From the IMG/VR virus record IMGVR_UViG_3300047383_000862: a DNA stretch of 64,000 nucleotides. The stretch is one strand, 5' to 3'. The notes under the pieces were generated by a model. That model was not told the origin of the DNA and searched no databases. It was given only the letters and a program-made list of their open reading frames with translations. Both the position numbers and the translations under genes were made by a program. This DNA comes from an uncultured virus (IMG/VR IMGVR_UViG_3300047383_000862) (lineage: Duplodnaviria > Heunggongvirae > Uroviricota > Caudoviricetes). Of the stretch, positions 6,583 to 57,814 are shown piece by piece (within the stretch, counting starts at the first letter, position 1; every line of letters begins with the position of its first letter).

Positions 6583-6960
6583 GTATACAATTATGACAGA
6601 AAACTACCGCAAGTCAAGCTTTTTTTTGAAATAGTTGTAACTCGTTGGTTATCATATAATTGCGAAAATCGCCAAAAACTCTTTTCTTGCTGTAAGTTGT
6701 TGAATATCATATAATTGCAAAAGTTGGCAGGGCGATCCCGCAAAATACTGATGCTCAACCTTTTACGAATTGAATTTTAATTTTATAAATTTTTGTTTAA
6801 ATTATAGCTTTATATATTTGTTATATATTTGCTACTTATATATTTGTTGTATGTATATTTGCTATGTCATTATATGATATGATTGAATTGAATAAAGAAT
6901 TTAATCTTGTTTAAAAACGAGACAAATTGTGATGACTATTGCTCCTAGAATAATTTCCAC

Positions 6961-7215
6961 TTAATTTGCTATATGTAGTGCTACTCTAAGATTCTCGCAA
7001 TCTTTACCACAGAGAAAAACTTCTCGGCAGTAGTCAATATCTTCGCTCTCTACTTTATCGATGCGTTGGATTGCCTCCCAGGCATGAACCCGTTCACGGG
7101 GCAGTCCGCCCCATTTAATGACGACCTTCATGTGCGGGAAATAATCTACGATCTCGGCAAGCTGAGGTTTCGTGATGTATCCGTAGTTTGATAATATGTC
7201 TTTTAATGTTTTCAT
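6961..7215 (-). CDS. hypothetical protein
   Basis: Start moved to MKTLKD (7215), just after promoter TTGACA(7245-7250)/CATACT; the upstream ORF extension runs through a terminator. Confidence 0.75.
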   Translation of the reverse strand: MKTLKDILSNYGYITKPQLAEIVDYFPHMKVVIKWGGLPRERVHAWEAIQRIDKVESEDIDYCREVFLCGKDCENLRVALHIAN

Positions 7216-7254
7216 AATAATAAGTATGGCAGGTTTGCTGGAAATGTCAAAACA

Positions 7255-7288
7255 AAAAACCCCTCCCAAGAGGATTCTTGAGAGGGGC
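7255..7288 (-). terminator. intrinsic terminator ending the putative ncRNA
   Basis: CCCCUCUCAAGA-AUCC-UCUUGGGAGGGG followed by U6. Confidence 0.85.
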
Positions 7289-7650
7289 GGTGGGGTTATA
7301 CGGGGATGGGGAAATATGTGTGGGGGAGGGTTCTGAGATACCTCCATCGTTTCGGCGTAAACTTTCAGTTTCGAGTTTCCTACTTTGAACTACAGACTAG
7401 GCGTGGTATTTGCCATTTGACTCATCCGATTGGACTCTGTCATCCCCACCACAGGGATCTGCATACTTTAGCTCGCTCACGACAAGCTTGTTCAGTCACC
7501 CACAGGAAGGATTATAAGCCCTTCCAAAGTGAATTGAGACTGACAAGAATTGGCTTTTAGCAACTTAATGCTTGCGAGATCTATGCTCAAAATTTAAAAT
7601 GTTAAAGATCGATTTATTTTATTTACTTGAGTTTGGTTCTCAATTTATGT
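7255..7650 (-). ncRNA. putative large structured non-coding RNA (family unassigned)
   Basis: Perfect promoter upstream, terminator downstream, no credible sense ORF, GC-rich core with many nested helices. Confidence 0.7.
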
Positions 7651-7655
7651 ATATA

Positions 7656-7684
7656 ATTATAGTATATTTAGTCTTATTTGTCAA
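7656..7684 (-). promoter_or_regulatory. consensus sigma70 promoter
   Basis: TTGACA(7679-7684)-17 nt-TATAAT(7656-7661). Confidence 0.9.
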
Positions 7685-7935
7685 GTATTAATTTTATTTT
7701 TATTGATTTTTCTGCACTCTCTTAATAAGTCTTTTATTTTAAACCAACTCTTCTCAGGCGGAAATAATTTTTTATTTGTATCAGAATCATGTGCTCTATA
7801 TAGATCATCTACATATTCTTCTACCTTAACTAATTTAATTAACATTAATTCTTTTGCAGTTAATTGTTCATATAATTCTTCATCAGTTGCGAACATACTA
7901 ACTTTATCACTAAGAGGTTTGATTGTTGCATCCAT
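7681..7935 (-). CDS. hypothetical protein
   Basis: ORF with GGGGGT SD. Confidence 0.7.
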   Translation of the reverse strand: MDATIKPLSDKVSMFATDEELYEQLTAKELMLIKLVKVEEYVDDLYRAHDSDTNKKLFPPEKSWFKIKDLLRECRKINKNKINT

Positions 7936-8132
7936 TATGCTACCCCCTTTGCTTGCTTGAGACGCTTGGCTTGAATCTCTTTGAGTCGCCTGTCTGCCTC
8001 TCTTTGTTGGGCGAAGATGCTATCCTCGACAATAGAACCATAGTTGGCAAATTTACTCATGCCCACATATGCCCCTCTTTTTACATTATTCATAATTGAA
8101 GTTGCTCTTGCACATTTAGCTATATTACCCAT
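7935..8132 (-). CDS. hypothetical basic protein
   Basis: ORF with AGGAGG SD and promoter at 8190-8195. Confidence 0.75.
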   Translation of the reverse strand: MGNIAKCARATSIMNNVKRGAYVGMSKFANYGSIVEDSIFAQQREADRRLKEIQAKRLKQAKGVA

Positions 8133-24249: not shown

Positions 24250-25251
24250 TCAATTAAAAAGATTATTTCGTAACACTTTAATCGCTTGATCTTTTAACTT
24301 AACTTCACACTCCCACTTGGCAGGTTGATCGGGTTCAATAGCGATATGTGGTGGAAAATTTCCGAGAGCAAAATGATCTGCATGAGAGCGAGGCTTTTCG
24401 GGTTTACCTTCCGACCAATGAAAAACAGGAGCAAGAAAATTGTTATCGCCACTTCCTTGATTTATCCATGTATATGCACATCGCTCTGCTTGAAATGCAA
24501 TATTATGATCTTCGGATGGATTGCAAAAGTCATGTAAATTATCGTAGCAAACAGGAATATTTGCACCAAATGTTCCAAACAAATACTCACTAAATTTAAT
24601 GCAGTTATCTACATTAAAGAAACCTTTGTCTTCGTTCTCAATAGTTATTCGATTGTAAACACCTCTATCGCACATAGAAAGATTGCGAAAGAATCTAGTA
24701 GCAACAACTTCTAGCGTCTCATCCGCTTTAGGTGAATAATTAATATGTATATTCATTGGGGCGGTATGGTCTTGAGGTAATCCGACCATATCGAGAACGC
24801 TTGCTTGAAAATTTAATTCATTTATTGTACGACTGACTTTATCTCTATCGGGAGACGCAAGAACATTGAATTGATCGGGATGCGACCCTATTGATATATT
24901 AAAGCGTTTGGCGATTAAGCCTACAAACTCTAACCCTTTTTCGATTCTTGATTTGTGGGGCAATTCTGCCATAGAAATTTCCAAAGTCTGATCGGTAAGG
25001 AGAGGAAAAAGAGCAGAACTAAGACGATAATGCCTAATGTTTGAGGCATGGCAATGATTGACAATATATTGAGTAACAATAACATTGTGCAAAATTCTTT
25101 CAGATAATTGATTAATTGCTTCATCTCTACCCTCGGAGTTACACAAATCATTGAACCTTTTGCGAGTCATAGTTCTGAAAGAATATTTAACCTTATTCTT
25201 CTCTTTTAGTTCCTCGCTAATACAAGTTAAGCCTAGTATTTGTTCTGACAT
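24250..25251 (-). CDS. uvsE: UV-damage endonuclease
   Basis: LGLTC, YRLSS..FP, SHPDQF, IENED, DNLH, FHWSE, SHAD and CEVK motifs; start moved to MSEQIL, 6 nt after the -10 box. Confidence 0.9.
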   Translation of the reverse strand: MSEQILGLTCISEELKEKNKVKYSFRTMTRKRFNDLCNSEGRDEAINQLSERILHNVIVTQYIVNHCHASNIRHYRLSSALFPLLTDQTLEISMAELPHKSRIEKGLEFVGLIAKRFNISIGSHPDQFNVLASPDRDKVSRTINELNFQASVLDMVGLPQDHTAPMNIHINYSPKADETLEVVATRFFRNLSMCDRGVYNRITIENEDKGFFNVDNCIKFSEYLFGTFGANIPVCYDNLHDFCNPSEDHNIAFQAERCAYTWINQGSGDNNFLAPVFHWSEGKPEKPRSHADHFALGNFPPHIAIEPDQPAKWECEVKLKDQAIKVLRNNLFN

Positions 25252-25307
25252 ATTATAACTATAAGGCATCGGATTAAGCTTGTCAAGTTTTTTGTGTATT
25301 CTCTTGT

Positions 25308-25541
25308 ATGGAAATGAACGAAATATTGATGATCGCAATGGGTATGATGGTATCTGTGATCGCTTTCTTCTTGAAGAGAGAGAGCATGAAGGTAGAAAAG
25401 TTATCTAATAAACTGAGGGAAATTGAAGTAGATTTAGCAAAAAATGGAGCTAGAGATTCTGAAAGATGGGTTCAGACAACCAGACTCCTAGAGGATAGAA
25501 GGCAAGATGTCGTAAAGATATTTGAGAAAATAAATCAATAG
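25308..25541 (+). CDS. small membrane-anchored coiled-coil protein (holin-like topology)
   Basis: N-terminal TM helix then coiled coil; GTGTAT motif 8 nt upstream. Confidence 0.6.
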   Translation: MEMNEILMIAMGMMVSVIAFFLKRESMKVEKLSNKLREIEVDLAKNGARDSERWVQTTRLLEDRRQDVVKIFEKINQ

Positions 25542-35913: not shown

Positions 35914-37206
35914 TCAAGATAAAATATCAAACAGAGGCTCGCCTTTATGAGCTATAGTGAAAGGTCTCCCTGAAGGTGAGTATTGGTAATCATTCAAAGG
36001 TAGACCAAGCGTGTGGGCTATAGTGGCGTTTAAATCTTCTGGCTTGATGGGTTTTCCTTCAACAGGAGATCTTCCTGCCTTATCCGTCTCACCATAAGTA
36101 AATCCACCTTTAACTCCACCTCCTGCAAGAAAAGCTGTAAAGCAATAAGGCCAATGATCTCTACCATCTCTGCCATTTATATTTGGCGTCCTGCCGAATT
36201 CAGAGGTTAATACAACTAGAGTCTCTGATAAAAGCCCTCTTCTATTTAAATCAATAAGAAGTCCGCTTAGAGCTTGGTCTATGTCGGCACAATTTGCTGC
36301 GACTCTTTCAAAATTGTTATCATGCGTATCCCAGCCACCTCTCGTGACTTCCACATACCTTACTCCATGCTCGACTAATCTTCTAGCTAACAAACAGCCC
36401 TTTCCAAAATTAGTACTTCCGTAGAGATCACTTGCTGAGGCTGGCTCTTTGGTAATGTCAAAAGCATTTAAATCATTACTATTCATCAGTTTTATTGCAT
36501 CTTTATATAAGTCTCCATAGGCTCTTACTTGTTTTGATGGAAATTCTGTAGCAAAATTTTCATTTAACTGCTCGGCAATAGATATTCTGCTTTGAAAATG
36601 TTCATGATCTAGATATGAAGCCATTTTACTGTTTGCAAGACCTGAGGATGGATTATTAATTGGAAGCGCTCCATATTTAGACTCTAGGAAGCCAGCTCCA
36701 CCACCTCCACCTCCGATCTTGACATTATTAGGGATCGTCTTATTGATTGACCCAGAAAGTTTAGAAACCCAGCTGCCAAAAGTAGGATGAACAATTGTTC
36801 CTCTCTTGAGATAACTTGTATGCATTAAGTAGCTTGCTTGCTCATGAGCTCCTTGGCTGGTATTCATTGTTTTGATAATTGACCCAAGATGCATTAGCTC
36901 TGCTGTTTTCGGTAAATTTTCAGACAAAATAACCCCATCAGCACTCGTTGCAATTGATTTAGTTGGCCCTTGAATATCAGGAGCGTCAGGTTTTGGGGCG
37001 AATGTATCTAAATGAGACATTGCTCCTGACATATTTAAATAAATAACATACCTCGCTGTTGGAACTCTGGCTCCAGGCTCAAGAGCGCTAACTGTGTTAT
37101 TGATATAAGTTCCCGCCATCGGCATTAAACCTACTCCAAAGCATGCTTTTGCGGCATGTGCTATAAATTCTCTTCTCCCTAATTCATCAATTGTATTTAA
37201 GTTCAT
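35914..37206 (-). CDS. DUF1501 family protein with Tat signal
   Basis: GRREF Tat motif, GAMSHLDTF.PKP, FGKGCLLARRLVEHGVRYVEV, GWDTH, SEFGRTP, GRDHWP; start moved to MNLNTI. Confidence 0.9.
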   Translation of the reverse strand: MNLNTIDELGRREFIAHAAKACFGVGLMPMAGTYINNTVSALEPGARVPTARYVIYLNMSGAMSHLDTFAPKPDAPDIQGPTKSIATSADGVILSENLPKTAELMHLGSIIKTMNTSQGAHEQASYLMHTSYLKRGTIVHPTFGSWVSKLSGSINKTIPNNVKIGGGGGGAGFLESKYGALPINNPSSGLANSKMASYLDHEHFQSRISIAEQLNENFATEFPSKQVRAYGDLYKDAIKLMNSNDLNAFDITKEPASASDLYGSTNFGKGCLLARRLVEHGVRYVEVTRGGWDTHDNNFERVAANCADIDQALSGLLIDLNRRGLLSETLVVLTSEFGRTPNINGRDGRDHWPYCFTAFLAGGGVKGGFTYGETDKAGRSPVEGKPIKPEDLNATIAHTLGLPLNDYQYSPSGRPFTIAHKGEPLFDILS

Positions 37207-37264
37207 AATAATATTATTACACATTTTGGGATAAAATCAACATAAGGTGTAAAATAAAAAGAAA

Positions 37265-38002
37265 ATGGGTAAGATTATATTCAAAAAAAAATCTAAGTTC
37301 CAAGAAATAGAATTGTTCCAAGAACAAGAAAAATACTGGCTTAATTTAAATAAACAAATACAATTCCATAAAGACGAGCATATTATATCTCATAACTTAC
37401 AATGTGATGTTCCTATGCAAAAATTTAGACCAAGAAAAATATTAATACTTGGGGGTGGAGACTGTTTGGCGGCGACGCATGTTCTGAAATATCACTTTGT
37501 CGAAAAAGTCAAAATGGTCGAAATTGATAAAGAGATGATAAACATGGTCAATGAGTCTAAATTAATGCAAAAAATTACAAAAAATGTAACCAAAGACCCT
37601 CGATTAGATATAAAAATAGGCGACGCTAAGGAATTTTTAATTAATAATGAAGAAGTATATGATTTAATTATTGAAGATATTGAACACTCATATACCAAAC
37701 AAAGTAACACTCATTCTTTTGAGAAATATTTTAATAAATTACTGAGCCAAGATTCTGCTATTAGCATGACTGATTATGACTCGAATTCAATTAATTTAAA
37801 AATTTTTATGAGGCAAAACATTAAAAGCATGGTGAAACATAAAAAACCTACTTTCTCTGTTTATTCAGACAGCCCCAGGAAATTGTTCAGCGAAAAATAT
37901 CAAAATATAAATTTAGAGAGATTGAATGAGAGGCAAATATATATTTGCGGAAATAATTATCCGAAGCCTTTTGGTTTTGAATGTTACATGATTATCAAAT
38001 AA
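37265..38002 (+). CDS. speE: spermidine synthase / aminopropyltransferase
   Basis: KSKFQEI, QIQF..DE, ILILGGGD, VEID, GDA..F, YDLIIED. Confidence 0.8.
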   Translation: MGKIIFKKKSKFQEIELFQEQEKYWLNLNKQIQFHKDEHIISHNLQCDVPMQKFRPRKILILGGGDCLAATHVLKYHFVEKVKMVEIDKEMINMVNESKLMQKITKNVTKDPRLDIKIGDAKEFLINNEEVYDLIIEDIEHSYTKQSNTHSFEKYFNKLLSQDSAISMTDYDSNSINLKIFMRQNIKSMVKHKKPTFSVYSDSPRKLFSEKYQNINLERLNERQIYICGNNYPKPFGFECYMIIK

Positions 38003-38042
38003 CAAAATTTAAAGAAAAATCAACACAAGTGTAATATAATAT

Positions 38043-38429
38043 ATGAGGTTTTTGCTTCTTTTTATATTAATATATATTTGTCTAGAAGCAAGGGTGGAAA
38101 GAAAAGATTTTCTAGATAATTGCGATTGGTGCAAAAATCAAGCTAAATTTACCCAACCGTTAGATCTTGGCGAATGGATGGCAAGATGCGGTAAAAAACC
38201 GAAAGACTTGTGGCTCACAATGAAAACTTTGGGGAGAGTTTATGGAACTTACAAAAAATCTATTTCTAGAAGTTGGTTGTATTCTGAAAAATTAGGATGG
38301 GTTTATAATATGCCTAACAAAAAAGGTTATTTTTATGCAGAAAAGCTGGGTTGGATTTATGTTGAAGGTAATATGATTTATATATTTAAATATAAAAAGT
38401 GGGATTATTTAATAAACATGAATTCATGA
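38043..38429 (+). CDS. exported protein with WxYxxxLGWxY repeats
   Basis: Signal-like N-terminus, CxxC, then WLYSEKLGWVY and YFYAEKLGWIY. Confidence 0.7.
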   Translation: MRFLLLFILIYICLEARVERKDFLDNCDWCKNQAKFTQPLDLGEWMARCGKKPKDLWLTMKTLGRVYGTYKKSISRSWLYSEKLGWVYNMPNKKGYFYAEKLGWIYVEGNMIYIFKYKKWDYLINMNS

Positions 38430-40675
38430 GTATTAATTAGTGTCCATATTATTTCTTTATAAGGTTCTTTTGCGTTCTTTAAATTGTCAGAAAAAATTCT
38501 TAACTCTTTAGTATCAGGCTCTCTATTTAATATATATTTATACCCAACTTTTATTTTATCATTCAATGATTTTTGAGATTGAATTGTTTTAATGATTTCA
38601 AAGTTTTTGTTTTTTAATAATCTAGTTTCTACGAAACCATTTAGCAAATTTAATACTTGTGTTGCAGAGGCGCTTTTATGCGCATTTTCTATCTGCTCTC
38701 TATCTGAACCCCCAAACTCTCGGATTAAATGCCCAATGGAGGCGGGGGAGGGTAGTTCGGAGGCTCTCACAGAGTTTCTGTCTTTAACAAAATTCTGCTT
38801 ATATTCTTGTTCTCTGGCTTTCTGCTGAGATTTATATTTATCAACGCAAGATTCGCAACAAAACGCAAGGGTTTCGCCGTTTTCGTTTAGAGCTAATAAT
38901 GTTGGATCAATTGCTCTTCCAGGCTTTATGGGACAGTCGGTGTTAATAGGCTCAGAAAACTTAGTCTCCTTTTCTATTTTCGGCTTTTCTGTTTTATTAA
39001 TCTTGGCCATTAGGTCTGCAAACAACTCTTCTCCCGTCATTTCAGAAAAATTTTCGTAATTCTGGTAACCTTTTGTGTTTTGTTCTAATTTTCTGGAGTC
39101 TATATCATTAAAGGTTAAGTTAACTAACGAGTCCCAGATTTGCTCGCCACTCATTCTTTCGAGTATTGGGCCTTGATAGAAATATGGAATTGCTCCTTGA
39201 GATTGCTTTTCTACATTTGGCCCAGCTATGATCCATTTTACATCTACAGGCATAGACTGATCTTTATTATCTTTAGGTATTACATCTCGAATTACAGACT
39301 GCCTTTGAAAAGTCTTTGTATTATATAATATTCTCAAAAATTCTTTTAAATCATAATCTAATGCAACCATAACTTTTTCTAAATGTAACTGAAGTTTTGT
39401 ATCAGTTGCGAGAGTATCGTCGAACATATTATCTAGAGGCTCAATTAAGGCAAGCCCGAACGCCTCTTTCCATAAACGATTTACAATTACAGCGGTAAAT
39501 CTTGGGTTAGAATCTGAAGCCAACCAATTAGCGTAAATCTCTCTAGAGCCAGCGTCAGGAGCTTTAGTTTTGATGTCGATTTCTTTTCCAAAAATTGTTT
39601 TACCCAATAAAACTTCATTTGGTTTTGCATTGTTATATTGATAATCTTTAGGTAAATTTATCTTACCATTTCCTAAACTAGTTAAACCAGTTTGAAGAAT
39701 ATCTTGGATATCTCTGACCCCATTCGATAACTGTCTTGATTTTTGCGGCTGATCTGAATCTTCTAGTTTTTTTCTTTCGTCTCTCACTAGCCTGTTTAAC
39801 TGGGTTAAATTATCTGGACTCTTTACTCTTAAATTGGTTGACCCACTCGTAAATGCTGCCATTTCATAGAATTGTTTTTGTGTCCAACGATCAAAAGGGT
39901 GATCATGGCACTGAGCACATTCAAGGCTAGTACCTAAGAAAACTCGGACTGTATTAGCCATACTATCAAGAGGCATATTTGCATCTCGAGCAAAATAACT
40001 AACTCCTTCGTTACCTTTTATCCATAATGGGCCAGAAGAGGAAAGCATCTCTCTTACCCATTCATCGTAAGGTCGATTATTGGATATAAAATCTTTTACA
40101 TAATTTTTGTATGGTACTCCAGGTATTCTATTATTCAGTCGATCTTTTATTCTTAATATATCTGCCCAGAAATTGAACCAATGGCTTGTATAGCCTTCAC
40201 TCTCTAGTAATTGATCAATTAATTTAGATCTTTTATTATTTTCTCTGCTGTTTAAAAAGGAGTCCACTTCAGTTAGTGATGGCGTCCTACCGATAACTTT
40301 TAAATAAGATCTGCGCAAAAAAGTAGCATCATCAACTTCTTTATTCGGTCTAAGATTGTATGATCTTAATTTTGTTTCAATTAAACTATCAATGTATTTC
40401 GAGTGAGCAGTTAAGTCTTTATCGGACAAAGGCTTGTTGAACTTAGGCAGAGCTTTGTGGCTGGGTGCAAAATTGTTTTTGATATACGCTTGGTTATCTT
40501 CTGTTAAAGAATCGATAGCGATTCTAAATAATTGCAGGTCGTTTGACCTTTTAATCAATGCATGTGTCGCATTTGCTTCAATAATATCGCCTTTTAAGTT
40601 TTTTCCATTATTAAAATAAAGAACATCACCAAAGCAAAAAAATGATGACAAGAGTAACAATATTAAAATTTTCAT
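38405..40675 (-). CDS. DUF1549/DUF1553 (PSCyt2/PSD1) cytochrome-c-motif protein with SHD1-like and YHS-like domains
   Basis: DDATFLRR.YL..IGRTP, WADILR, FLGTSLECAQCHDHPF, NPRF..VIVNRLW, TQVLNLLNG, WTLINTHEF; CPI...FCCESC insert. Confidence 0.9.
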   Translation of the reverse strand: MKILILLLLSSFFCFGDVLYFNNGKNLKGDIIEANATHALIKRSNDLQLFRIAIDSLTEDNQAYIKNNFAPSHKALPKFNKPLSDKDLTAHSKYIDSLIETKLRSYNLRPNKEVDDATFLRRSYLKVIGRTPSLTEVDSFLNSRENNKRSKLIDQLLESEGYTSHWFNFWADILRIKDRLNNRIPGVPYKNYVKDFISNNRPYDEWVREMLSSSGPLWIKGNEGVSYFARDANMPLDSMANTVRVFLGTSLECAQCHDHPFDRWTQKQFYEMAAFTSGSTNLRVKSPDNLTQLNRLVRDERKKLEDSDQPQKSRQLSNGVRDIQDILQTGLTSLGNGKINLPKDYQYNNAKPNEVLLGKTIFGKEIDIKTKAPDAGSREIYANWLASDSNPRFTAVIVNRLWKEAFGLALIEPLDNMFDDTLATDTKLQLHLEKVMVALDYDLKEFLRILYNTKTFQRQSVIRDVIPKDNKDQSMPVDVKWIIAGPNVEKQSQGAIPYFYQGPILERMSGEQIWDSLVNLTFNDIDSRKLEQNTKGYQNYENFSEMTGEELFADLMAKINKTEKPKIEKETKFSEPINTDCPIKPGRAIDPTLLALNENGETLAFCCESCVDKYKSQQKAREQEYKQNFVKDRNSVRASELPSPASIGHLIREFGGSDREQIENAHKSASATQVLNLLNGFVETRLLKNKNFEIIKTIQSQKSLNDKIKVGYKYILNREPDTKELRIFSDNLKNAKEPYKEIIWTLINTHEFMFIK

Positions 40676-56710: not shown

Positions 56711-57814
56711 CTAAAATCCGTATATCGAGTTAAAGCCGCTACCGCCTTTGGTTTTGAGAGCTTCTTTAATCTTTTTATGCGCAATATCAATTTCTGTTTC
56801 ATTGATTTCACTATCATCAATATCAACTTTAACTGAAAGAAAGTCGTCAAAACTGCTAAGATTAAGATTTTCATCTTTTATCGCAATACCCTTCATTTGG
56901 AAAATATTCTGATCGCTATTAATACCGCAACATATCCACCCTATATCCTTCCCGAATGATGGTATTTCTTTTGAAAAGGCATCGTCTAAGGGCTCTTCAT
57001 CCCAAAAGAAGCAAGGGGTATTATTCTCTGGCCAAGTATGCTTAAACGCTTCGACATTTTGTTTGTCAGAAACTTCTTTGCCTCCAATAATAGAAGGATT
57101 TAATTTATGATTCAAGTTATTATAAACTAAAGGAAAAAACTTGCCATATTCTCCGCCACAGTAAAGATGTAGCCATTTAAATAAATTTTGACAATTCCAG
57201 CAACCTTCTTTTTCATTTGTGACTGAGACTCTTGATTGAGAAGATTCTGGAAGATTTTCGAAAGAATTATAAAATTTATCAATTACATTTTTTAACTTTA
57301 ATTCCTCTGCCTCGTTAACAGAATTATTTACCTGTATAATAATAGGCGATTCTAATCCTTGATCTAACTCAAACAAATCAAAAATTGTAGACCATAAATT
57401 AATTAAATTTAAAGATTTTTTAATAGTTGTTTCTGTGGCTGACAGTAAAACTTGCTTCCTTAACTCAACACAAATTTTAACATTAAATTTTCTGGCTATA
57501 ATACCTATCTTTTTAAGCTCTTTGATTATTGATTCATAATCTGCAAGATCTTTGATTGAACAAGGAATCGAGTCATCGTGCAGTAAAGGAATTAACTCGT
57601 TAAAGATAGAGTATAGTTTGATGTTATTTTGAGCGCAAAATTTAATATGATTTTGAGCGCATATTGCATTATGCATTATGATTTCACTAAGCTCCGAGAT
57701 AGCTTCATTAAGCGGCTTTGCATTAAAAGCTTTCTTAGATAGACTTCTAAAAGAGTTTTCGCTAGACGATTGAGATAAAGTAGAGCTCGAGCTTAGTAAA
57801 CCATAAGTATTCAT
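56711..57814 (-). CDS. divergent UvsE-like TIM-barrel protein (probably inactive)
   Basis: Collinear with 24250-25251 (HN, NIKLY, ELKKIG.IA.KFN, SPIIIQVN, G.WN..N, FPLVY, H..NPS, TW) but metal ligands altered. Confidence 0.7.
   Translation of the reverse strand: MNTYGLLSSSSTLSQSSSENSFRSLSKKAFNAKPLNEAISELSEIIMHNAICAQNHIKFCAQNNIKLYSIFNELIPLLHDDSIPCSIKDLADYESIIKELKKIGIIARKFNVKICVELRKQVLLSATETTIKKSLNLINLWSTIFDLFELDQGLESPIIIQVNNSVNEAEELKLKNVIDKFYNSFENLPESSQSRVSVTNEKEGCWNCQNLFKWLHLYCGGEYGKFFPLVYNNLNHKLNPSIIGGKEVSDKQNVEAFKHTWPENNTPCFFWDEEPLDDAFSKEIPSFGKDIGWICCGINSDQNIFQMKGIAIKDENLNLSSFDDFLSVKVDIDDSEINETEIDIAHKKIKEALKTKGGSGFNSIYGF

Follow-up and report, generated by a model that had tools for sequence, protein, structure and literature searches.

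A manA RNA with the layout of a free-standing gene in a large marine phage

The uncultured virus record IMGVR_UViG_3300047383_000862 (IMG/VR; Caudoviricetes) contains a structured RNA element that raises the question of whether such an RNA is encoded as a product in its own right or as the regulatory leader of the gene that follows it. The element lies at about 7650 to 7255 on the minus strand of the 64,000-nucleotide stretch of DNA that was analysed (here called the window), and all features described below are on that strand. On the basis of the sequence alone it had been predicted to be an abundant, stand-alone non-coding RNA that could not be assigned to a family. The element is in fact a known RNA family, manA, in a new carrier and with an unusually clear free-standing gene layout, and it is the layout that is the new part. 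We consider, with a probability of about 0.75, that manA is encoded here by a free-standing gene and transcribed from a unit of its own.

The manA RNA was first described by Weinberg et al. (2010; PMC2864571) as a riboswitch candidate. As outlined there, it occurs almost only in marine metagenomes, T4-like cyanophages and two gamma-proteobacteria, and usually in potential 5′ untranslated regions (UTRs). In a literature search, no account of manA as an independent unit with its own terminator came up.

Identity and fold of the RNA

A scan of the window against Rfam 15 using cmscan gave a match to manA (RF01745) at 7525-7315, a core of 211 nt, with a score of 79.3 bits against a cut-off of 55.2 and an E-value of 1.5e-18. 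The match spans model positions 1-192 of 192 and is not truncated. No other Rfam family reaches its cut-off in the 64-kb window, and no other has E ≤ 1 within 7000-7900. Because the score over the full model exceeds the curated cut-off, the core is a full-length member of an already catalogued family, and the RNA itself is not new. The original prediction was therefore wrong in finding no family to assign; the strong Rfam match removes the novelty of the RNA and leaves the structured non-coding RNA standing. A loose likeness to the large phage RNAs GOLLD and ROOL had also been suggested. Neither reached its cut-off in the scan of the window, and the likeness is at most functional: GOLLD, ROOL and other large phage RNAs are likewise phage-borne, ornate and untranslated, but with a size several times greater and a fold unrelated to that of manA. 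Recent cryo-electron microscopy (cryo-EM) of GOLLD, ROOL and similar large phage RNAs has reportedly revealed RNA-only multimeric shells.

The family consensus boxes GUGaCUGAAUAA, UAAgGU, the GGUGGUG loop, the ACCA loop and GGUAU are found in the window as GUGACUGAACAA, UAAAGU, GUGGUG, AUACCA and GGUAU. All the conserved junction and loop boxes of the family (GUGACUGAA.AA, UAAAGU, GUGGUG, ACCA and GGUAU) are present, together with nine helices in the same order, and the marine phage origin and the sigma-70-type promoter ahead of the RNA are shared as well. The score is far lower than in the T4-like type, at 79 bits compared with 168-197 in all 20 of the scanned contigs of that type (a separate sample, described below); published cyanophage manA RNAs score 91-173 (PMC9964418, Table S7).

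Relatives of the locus were gathered in two independent ways, through the downstream gene, which encodes a protein of 84 aa, and through a conserved leader ahead of the RNA. The downstream gene led to 31 loci on viral contigs of up to 214 kb, with protein identities of 58-100%. Thirty of these have manA over the cut-off, always about 90-160 nt before the ATG, the exception (L135) having only 171 nt of upstream DNA. The leader led to 35 loci, from which 16 on new contigs were chosen; manA is over the cut-off in 15 of them, and the other (L162) ends 89 nt after the leader. Pooling both routes and removing duplicates left 36 distinct loci, on marine phage contigs of about 200 kb, which are referred to here as the clade. 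The nearest relative record, G001, is a viral contig of 193,844 bp rated 100% complete, and is about 100% identical to the window across the flanking genes and the manA core. Most clade members have GUGACCGAA at the family position of GUGACUGAA. A blastn search of the window RNA against the T4-like-type loci gave nothing at E ≤ 1e-3 except G001.

The core differs from its surroundings in composition, the GC fraction being 0.44-0.49 over 7300-7599 and 0.23-0.28 in the flanks. The minimum free energy of the fold is -114.7 kcal/mol, compared with -91.3 ± 5.7 kcal/mol for shuffled sequences (z = -4.08), and none of 100 dinucleotide shuffles folds as well. The GC-rich folded core of the original prediction is thus confirmed. 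Covariation had been named as a check, and among 33 unique clade sequences RNAalifold finds compensatory changes in 17 of 38 predicted pairs; the pairs with changes on both sides include some in P1, P3, P5, P6 and P9, where helix numbers, assigned in this analysis, follow the order along the RNA. Codon-like periodicity had been named beforehand as evidence to the contrary, and there is none: the variation among relatives sits in helices and loops, and indels of 1-7 nt are tolerated. As had been claimed, the unit has no long sense ORF, the longest on the minus strand being 24 aa from ATG, 27 aa from GTG and 32 aa from TTG. A 128-aa ORF (6961-7347) that enters the unit from the downstream side is indeed a spurious extension, since a 7-nt indel in G001 breaks its frame and leaves the 84-aa ORF from 7215 intact. 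Taken together, the comparison of related sequences argues that the core is a structured non-coding RNA and not a chance fold.

Helix P1 spans 7525-7505. The closing helix P2 joins GUGGG (7503-7499) to CCCAC (7324-7320) and is nearly invariant in the clade, while the T4-like type has GGGAG/CUCCC and GGGUG/CACCC. In the structure line of cmscan, square brackets mark what we take to be the closing helix of a multi-stem junction (as WUSS nesting marks) and not a pseudoknot. The loops of interest are L5 (GUGGUG, 7452-7447), L7 (AUACCAC, 7409-7403), L8 (ACUGA, 7369-7365) and L9 (7340-7330), the last of these capping P9 (7345-7325).

Of eight pairings put forward in the original prediction, five fit both the manA consensus and the clade alignment. 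GGAAGG/CCUUCC is P1, UGCAGA/UCUGUA is P4, UCC-AAUC-GGA is the tip of P6, GGAGG/CCUCC is P9, and GUGGU/ACCAC is the complement between L5 and L7. The remaining three have to be given up, their 5′ arms being housed in a 64-nt insert described in the next section. For the outer helix CUUGUCAGUC/GACUGAACAAG, the 5′ arm is in the insert, which the nearest relatives lack, and the 3′ arm is a conserved family junction; L144 and L145 carry the insert yet show CUUGUAAGUC where the window has CUUGUCAGUC, and the proposed helix is therefore broken. In place of CUCGC/GCGAG, the sequence GCGAGC pairs locally with GCUUGU to form P3, with compensation at two of its five predicted pairs. The long-range pseudoknot UAUCUCA/UGAGCAUA again has its 5′ partner within the insert, and the L9 loop covaries with L8.

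In the window, L5 (GUGGU) and L7 (ACCAC) are complementary over 5 bp, and L8 (CUGA) and L9 (UCAG) over 4 bp. One L8-L9 position is G-C in 29 and A-U in 4 of the 33 clade sequences, with no mismatches. In the T4-like type the same pair is C-G in 81 and A-U in 14, with no mismatches, in the 95 of 100 listed RNAs that have the motif, and the remaining five have different loops. Covariation is weaker between L5 and L7, the fourth pair in the clade being U-A in 20 sequences, C-G in 3, G-U in 1 and mismatched in 9. All of these counts come from motif-finding scripts; MAFFT places L8 and L9 of the window one column off the other rows.

These loops are of interest in the light of a 2026 cryo-EM preprint (10.64898/2026.07.01.735769), according to which manA RNAs assemble into octamers, decamers and an icosahedral-like cage of 60 subunits, all built up from pentamers through kissing loops between molecules, L5-L7′ together with L8-L9′ (or L3-L8′). 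Our loop numbers, taken from helix order, fit those of the preprint, including a GNRA-type L6, and by this correspondence L5/L7 and L8/L9 of the window would be the loops so numbered there. The RNAs are alike in belonging to one family and in having complementary, covarying loops that fit the named kissing-loop interfaces. They differ in that the preprint deals with other family members, and that the window RNA adds a leader, an insert and a terminator tail, which could help or hinder assembly. Because two loop pairs covary in natural sequences, the contacts seen by cryo-EM are probably under selection and not a folding artefact. The covariation fits intramolecular and intermolecular loop pairing alike, and we regard the formation of oligomers in vivo as possible rather than probable.

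Layout of the transcription unit

The exact promoter of the original prediction is present, with TTGACA at 7684-7679, a 17-nt spacer and TATAAT at 7661-7656, and matches the sigma-70-type consensus at 12 of 12 positions. Its -35 hexamer contains the stop codon TGA (7681-7684) of an upstream 84-aa ORF (7935-7681). Among 30 loci from the downstream-gene route, 24 have TTGACAAATAA...TAtAAT about 95-206 nt ahead of P1, and the other six have TTGACT or no promoter match in the stretch examined. The -10 box of the manA promoter is followed by tatatacATA, a mirror of the tatatacATG found at the leaderless genes of this phage (discussed below), and from this parallel transcription would be expected to start at about 7648. 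Promoters of this kind are numerous: 17 sites in the window lie within one mismatch of TTGACA-N17-TATAAT, compared with 1.45 expected and with none of 100 shuffles reaching 17, and 16 of the 17 are on the minus strand.

The roughly 70 nt between the promoter and P1 are common to all clade loci, and consist of a small hairpin followed by an A/U-rich stretch. The hairpin, UUGAG-AACCAAA-CUCAA (7643-7627), recurs in the leaders of related loci and has the position of a boxB-type hairpin. In L150-L154 it reads UUAAG/CUUAA, so that both sides have changed and pairing is kept. Within the A/U-rich stretch is a boxA-like box, GAUCUUUAACA (7610-7600), whose position relative to the promoter is constant across related loci. 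Read as GATCTTTAACA, it matches the gamma-proteobacterial BoxA consensus GYTCTTTAANA (PMC5725501) at 10 of 11 positions, with a mismatch at Y2, although a gamma-proteobacterial consensus may not be that of the host. L131 and L146 have GTTCTTTAATA, which matches at all 11 positions, and other relatives match at 9-10. The box is plausibly a Nus-factor site that guards an untranslated RNA against premature termination. The arrangement resembles the antitermination leader of ribosomal RNA (rRNA) operons, in which a strong promoter, a small hairpin and a boxA-like box also precede an untranslated structured RNA. It differs in having no boxC and no long leader-trailer helix.

Between the leader and P1 the window carries the optional 64-nt insert (7595-7532), closed by UUGAG/CUCAA. 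It is absent from G001 and from L126-L130, the cores of which are otherwise about 100% identical, and in contigs of sequencing runs X1 and X9 only TTA separates 7596 from 7531. An insert-like stretch is found in L144 and L145, and other inserts occupy the same site in L141, L146 and L149. Leader plus insert alone fold no better than shuffled sequences (z = -0.84).

On its 3′ side, manA is separated by a C-rich, G-poor spacer (7314-7289) from an intrinsic terminator (7288-7249). The terminator hairpin (7288-7259) consists of a 4-nt loop on a stem of 13 bp, 7 of them G-C, and is followed by UUUUUUGUUUU; the strong terminator foreseen in the original prediction is therefore real as a sequence feature, its stem running into TTTTTTGTTTT. 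The spacer varies among relatives both in sequence and in length (13-174 nt), and differs by the 7-nt indel between the window and G001. The stem reads GCCCCUCUCAAGA/UCUUGGGAGGGGU in the window and GCCCCUUCUAGA/UCUAGGAGGGGC in G001, with pairing kept and identical flanks. A terminator hairpin with a U-run is present in 35 of the 36 distinct loci, and the stem sequences are widely different yet paired. In five loci (L143, L170, L182, L177 and L188) there is extra conserved, apparently structured sequence of 70-150 nt between manA and the terminator. It is of two types, and lies at 1373-1545 in L177, 161 nt after manA in L188, and about 70-90 nt after manA in L143, L170 and L182; no Rfam family reaches its cut-off for these elements in the scanned clade loci that carry them.

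Abutting the terminator U-run is a second promoter (7250-7223; TTGACA-16-CATACT, with TG before the -10 box; 10 of 12 positions), and the ATG of the downstream 84-aa gene lies 7 nt past its -10 box. The same order is found in 35 of the 36 distinct loci: manA, the spacer of 13-174 nt, hairpin and U-run, TTGAC(A), -10 box and ATG. The -35 box is 4-12 nt past the stem, with 15-18 nt from there to the -10 box and 6-7 nt on to the ATG. Because the ATG sits 6-7 nt after the -10 box, where transcription would begin, this implies that the mRNA of the downstream gene is probably leaderless. The claim that manA has its own transcription unit is thus upheld, by a consensus host-type promoter among early-type genes and by a terminator followed by a separate promoter throughout these loci. 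A 5′-UTR position directly before a protein gene, which is the basis of the Rfam type "Cis-reg", is seen neither here nor in those 35 loci. This type is a contextual and not a structural criterion, and membership of manA is therefore unaffected.

Leaderless early genes appear to be widespread in this phage. Over positions 1-58200 of the window, an ATG is found 6-8 nt past the -10 box at 23 of 43 promoter-like sites (of the type TTGAC[AT]-16-18-TAnnnT), and coincides with an ORF start wherever this was checked; examples are 6617-6582, 6033-5998, 4052-4016, 28017-27982 and 35917-35882. Long leaders with AGGA-type boxes occur at a few genes, namely rIIA, rIIB and the ORF at 8132. With a close ATG at 23 of 43 sites, independent leaderless units are therefore a habit of this phage.

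Carriers, neighbours and other occurrences of manA

Cyanophages with manA according to Rfam are listed in PMC9964418 (Table S7). Scans of the window with Pfam and PHROG show that its carrier is a large phage with rIIA, rIIB, a clamp loader and lambda-type tail proteins L and J. Among the cultured phages covered by the search, from which records close to the window may be missing, there is no match to the DNA of 6900-7950, nor to the downstream 84-aa ORF in a protein search, and the rIIA and tail protein L of the window have only distant matches (<30% identity), the best for protein L being Synechococcus siphovirus S-CBS4. The phages in the published manA table all bear names that we take to be those of T4-like cyanomyoviruses. 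Because of these names on the one hand and the lambda-type tail genes on the other, the window lineage looks like a second kind of marine manA carrier, marked by tail-tip genes of the lambda type and by many leaderless early genes.

The gene that follows the manA unit (6961-7215) encodes the 84-aa protein, which has 114 related protein clusters and no Pfam or PHROG family match. An AlphaFold2 model of it has a pLDDT of 90.8, and a fold search of the PDB with this model found nothing at E ≤ 0.001, the best E-value being 0.076. In most loci the next gene is clearly related to the 84-aa protein; five loci have a more distant protein of the MNTL... type, and L168 has an extra gene between the manA unit and the 84-aa-type gene. 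The genes upstream of the unit differ among loci. Elsewhere in the 64 kb there are two homologues of UvdE-type UV-damage endonucleases (24250-25338 and 56711-57814; E-values of 5e-30 and 3e-10). The region 35914-40675 encodes a DUF1501 domain (E 3e-107), and PSCyt2 and PSD1 within one 756-aa protein; these three domains are usual in proteins of Planctomycetes-type bacteria, and PHROG gave no match.

The sample of the T4-like type consists of at least 120 loci found by a pattern scan that is biased to the T4-like consensus and misses most clade members, which have GUGACCGAA. Nine chance matches among 109 unique cores were dropped (L005, L027, L034, L061, L070, L071, L095, L097 and L117). In contrast to the conserved leader of about 70 nt in the clade, 84 of 102 distinct listed upstream regions have a -10 box (at least 5 of 6 positions) just before P1, and 55 of these 84 also have a -35 box. 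A U-tract begins within 4 nt of the closing helix in 52 of 98 listed loci, and a separate terminator-like hairpin is found in 27 of 112. A tRNA gene begins no more than 13 nt past the 3′ end of manA in 7 of 102 listed loci (Asn in L009, L041, L059, L077 and L103; Gly in L025 and L098), and a manA that abuts a tRNA is therefore suggestive of a processed, free RNA. The published 5′-UTR picture holds for many T4-like-type loci, not for all.

Other structured elements occur near manA in this sample. In many contigs, including L019, L051, L055, L060, L063, L069, L106, L113, L121 and L123, the U-tract is followed by a conserved element AGACCTAAGATGCAAC...GGGCAGATGG, at which no Rfam family reaches its cut-off in the loci scanned. 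For L020 and L074, the Rfam scan places a tRNA 49 nt past manA, whereas ARAGORN has none there. Glutamine riboswitches (RF01739; 38-39 bits against a cut-off of 35) are found at L028:312-360, L059:711-759 and L077:886-934, a few hundred nt upstream of manA, which suggests a cluster of structured RNAs.

Sequencing runs provide a further view of the locus. There are 24 runs listed with part of the stretch, 19 of them on record as RNA, and four were examined. Each of the three true RNA-seq runs, which come from three different studies, has a single contig on the core, at 99-100% identity: 187 nt (7334-7520), 182 nt (7330-7511), and 222 nt of the insert-less form, reaching into the leader. In the fourth run, which is flagged as probable DNA, a contig of 943 nt spans the whole unit. 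The RNA-library contigs end at 7330/7334 and 7511/7520, without flanking genes, and in run X1 there is a variant at 7330; since strain differences interrupt contigs, these ends are not read as transcript ends. This shows that the core is present in RNA libraries, and the contigs do not speak to transcription, ends or level. The description of the RNA as abundant is accordingly not borne out.

A free RNA or a switch

On the basis of this layout, we propose that the sigma-70 RNA polymerase of the host would start at about 7648, at the consensus early-type promoter, and transcribe the leader of about 70 nt with its hairpin and boxA-like box, to which this strain adds the optional 64-nt extra hairpin. 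It would then transcribe the 211-nt core and stop at the intrinsic terminator near 7250. The product would measure about 400 nt in this strain and about 330 nt where the insert is absent. The boxA-like leader may recruit the Nus complex of the host, so that an untranslated RNA would be made and folded efficiently, like ribosomal RNA. The next gene would not be fed by this transcript, and would have its own promoter and a start at or within 1-2 bases of the AUG. Contacts between L5 (GUGGU) and L7 (ACCAC), and between L8 (CUGA) and L9 (UCAG), may join manA copies into closed oligomers. Because the terminator and the separate promoter sever manA from the next gene, and thereby set the clade apart from the family label, it is most likely that manA acts here as an RNA product and not as a 5′-UTR switch.

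The chief alternative is a transcriptional riboswitch or attenuator, in which manA would sense a ligand and 7288-7249 would serve as its expression platform, with read-through supplementing what the 84-aa gene's own promoter supplies. In Rfam and in Weinberg et al. (2010; PMC2864571), manA is placed among the cis-regulatory elements as a riboswitch candidate, and several of our own observations likewise weigh against a free RNA. A transcriptional riboswitch would likewise show a terminator right after an aptamer-like fold, an arrangement shared by 35 of 36 clade loci. Pairing between the C-rich 3′ end of manA, CCCUCCCC, and the G-rich 3′ arm of the terminator, GGGAGGGG, also looks possible by eye in the window. 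The same small gene family comes next in most loci, which could mean a functional tie; the constancy of this neighbour does not distinguish such a tie from simple synteny. Many of the listed T4-like-type loci have an ORF that begins within about 10-40 nt of the 3′ end of manA, and in 85 of 112 no terminator hairpin was detected; these close ORFs and few terminators are the basis of the published cis-regulatory reading. Within the clade, L157 is the sole exception, with no terminator and an ORF 13 nt after manA. Other parts of the proposal have weak points of their own. The boxA-like box has a mismatch at position 2, in a consensus that may not be that of the host; the loop duplexes differ little in energy from swapped ones (-5.07 compared with -4.62, and -5.25 compared with -4.93 kcal/mol); oligomers are known in vitro only, at 10 mM Mg2+ and for other family members, as reported in 10.64898/2026.07.01.735769; and the RNA-library contigs give no starts, ends, strand or level, an RNA library being able to hold DNA. 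A switch is nevertheless unlikely. The distance from fold to terminator ranges over 13-174 nt, and the extra 70-150 nt of conserved sequence in five loci are hard to fit to an aptamer-terminator switch. Terminator stems change freely, without a conserved partner in manA, and in 35 of 36 loci the next gene has a full promoter for a leaderless start, with no Shine-Dalgarno box for a read-through transcript. Our literature search found no manA ligand, 16 years after the description of the family, and the tRNAs directly behind manA in 7 of 102 listed T4-like-type loci also argue against a switch.

A base-pairing small RNA is a distinctly more remote alternative. The A/U-rich leader (7626-7596) would here be a seed that pairs with mRNAs of the host or the phage, with manA acting as a scaffold or stabilising domain. 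The leader is predicted to be mostly unpaired, and is conserved while the neighbouring protein drops to 58% identity. However, the window holds no complement of the 20-nt leader core at up to 3 mismatches except the site itself, the reverse strand of the 194-kb G001 holds none of a 15-nt core at up to 1 mismatch, and a boxA-type protein site explains the conserved box at least as well. The idea that a chance structure or small coding region has been mistaken for an RNA can practically be dismissed: sense ORFs of 24-32 codons do exist, but the covariance-model E-value of 1.5e-18, the compensation in 17 of 38 pairs, the absence of a codon pattern and the tolerance of 1-7-nt indels all oppose it.

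The free-standing manA gene thus remains the preferred explanation, and it bears on a family that has been an orphan riboswitch candidate since 2010 and that, according to the 2026 preprint 10.64898/2026.07.01.735769, forms RNA-only cages in vitro. The present work appears to extend manA to a second kind of marine phage. For the family as a whole, we suggest only tentatively that manA is not a cis-regulatory leader, and may instead be a free, high-output phage RNA, close to its promoter, that is made from rRNA-style units and self-assembles by way of the covarying L5-L7 and L8-L9 loop pairs into closed RNA shells in infected marine bacteria. Such a unit would comprise a strong promoter, a boxA-type leader, and its own terminator or an abutting tRNA, and would be clearest in this lineage of about 200 kb, a combination that is equally speculative. 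The lineage separates manA cleanly, in the order promoter, leader, RNA, terminator and next promoter; this separation speaks for a free RNA and opens the question to experiment.

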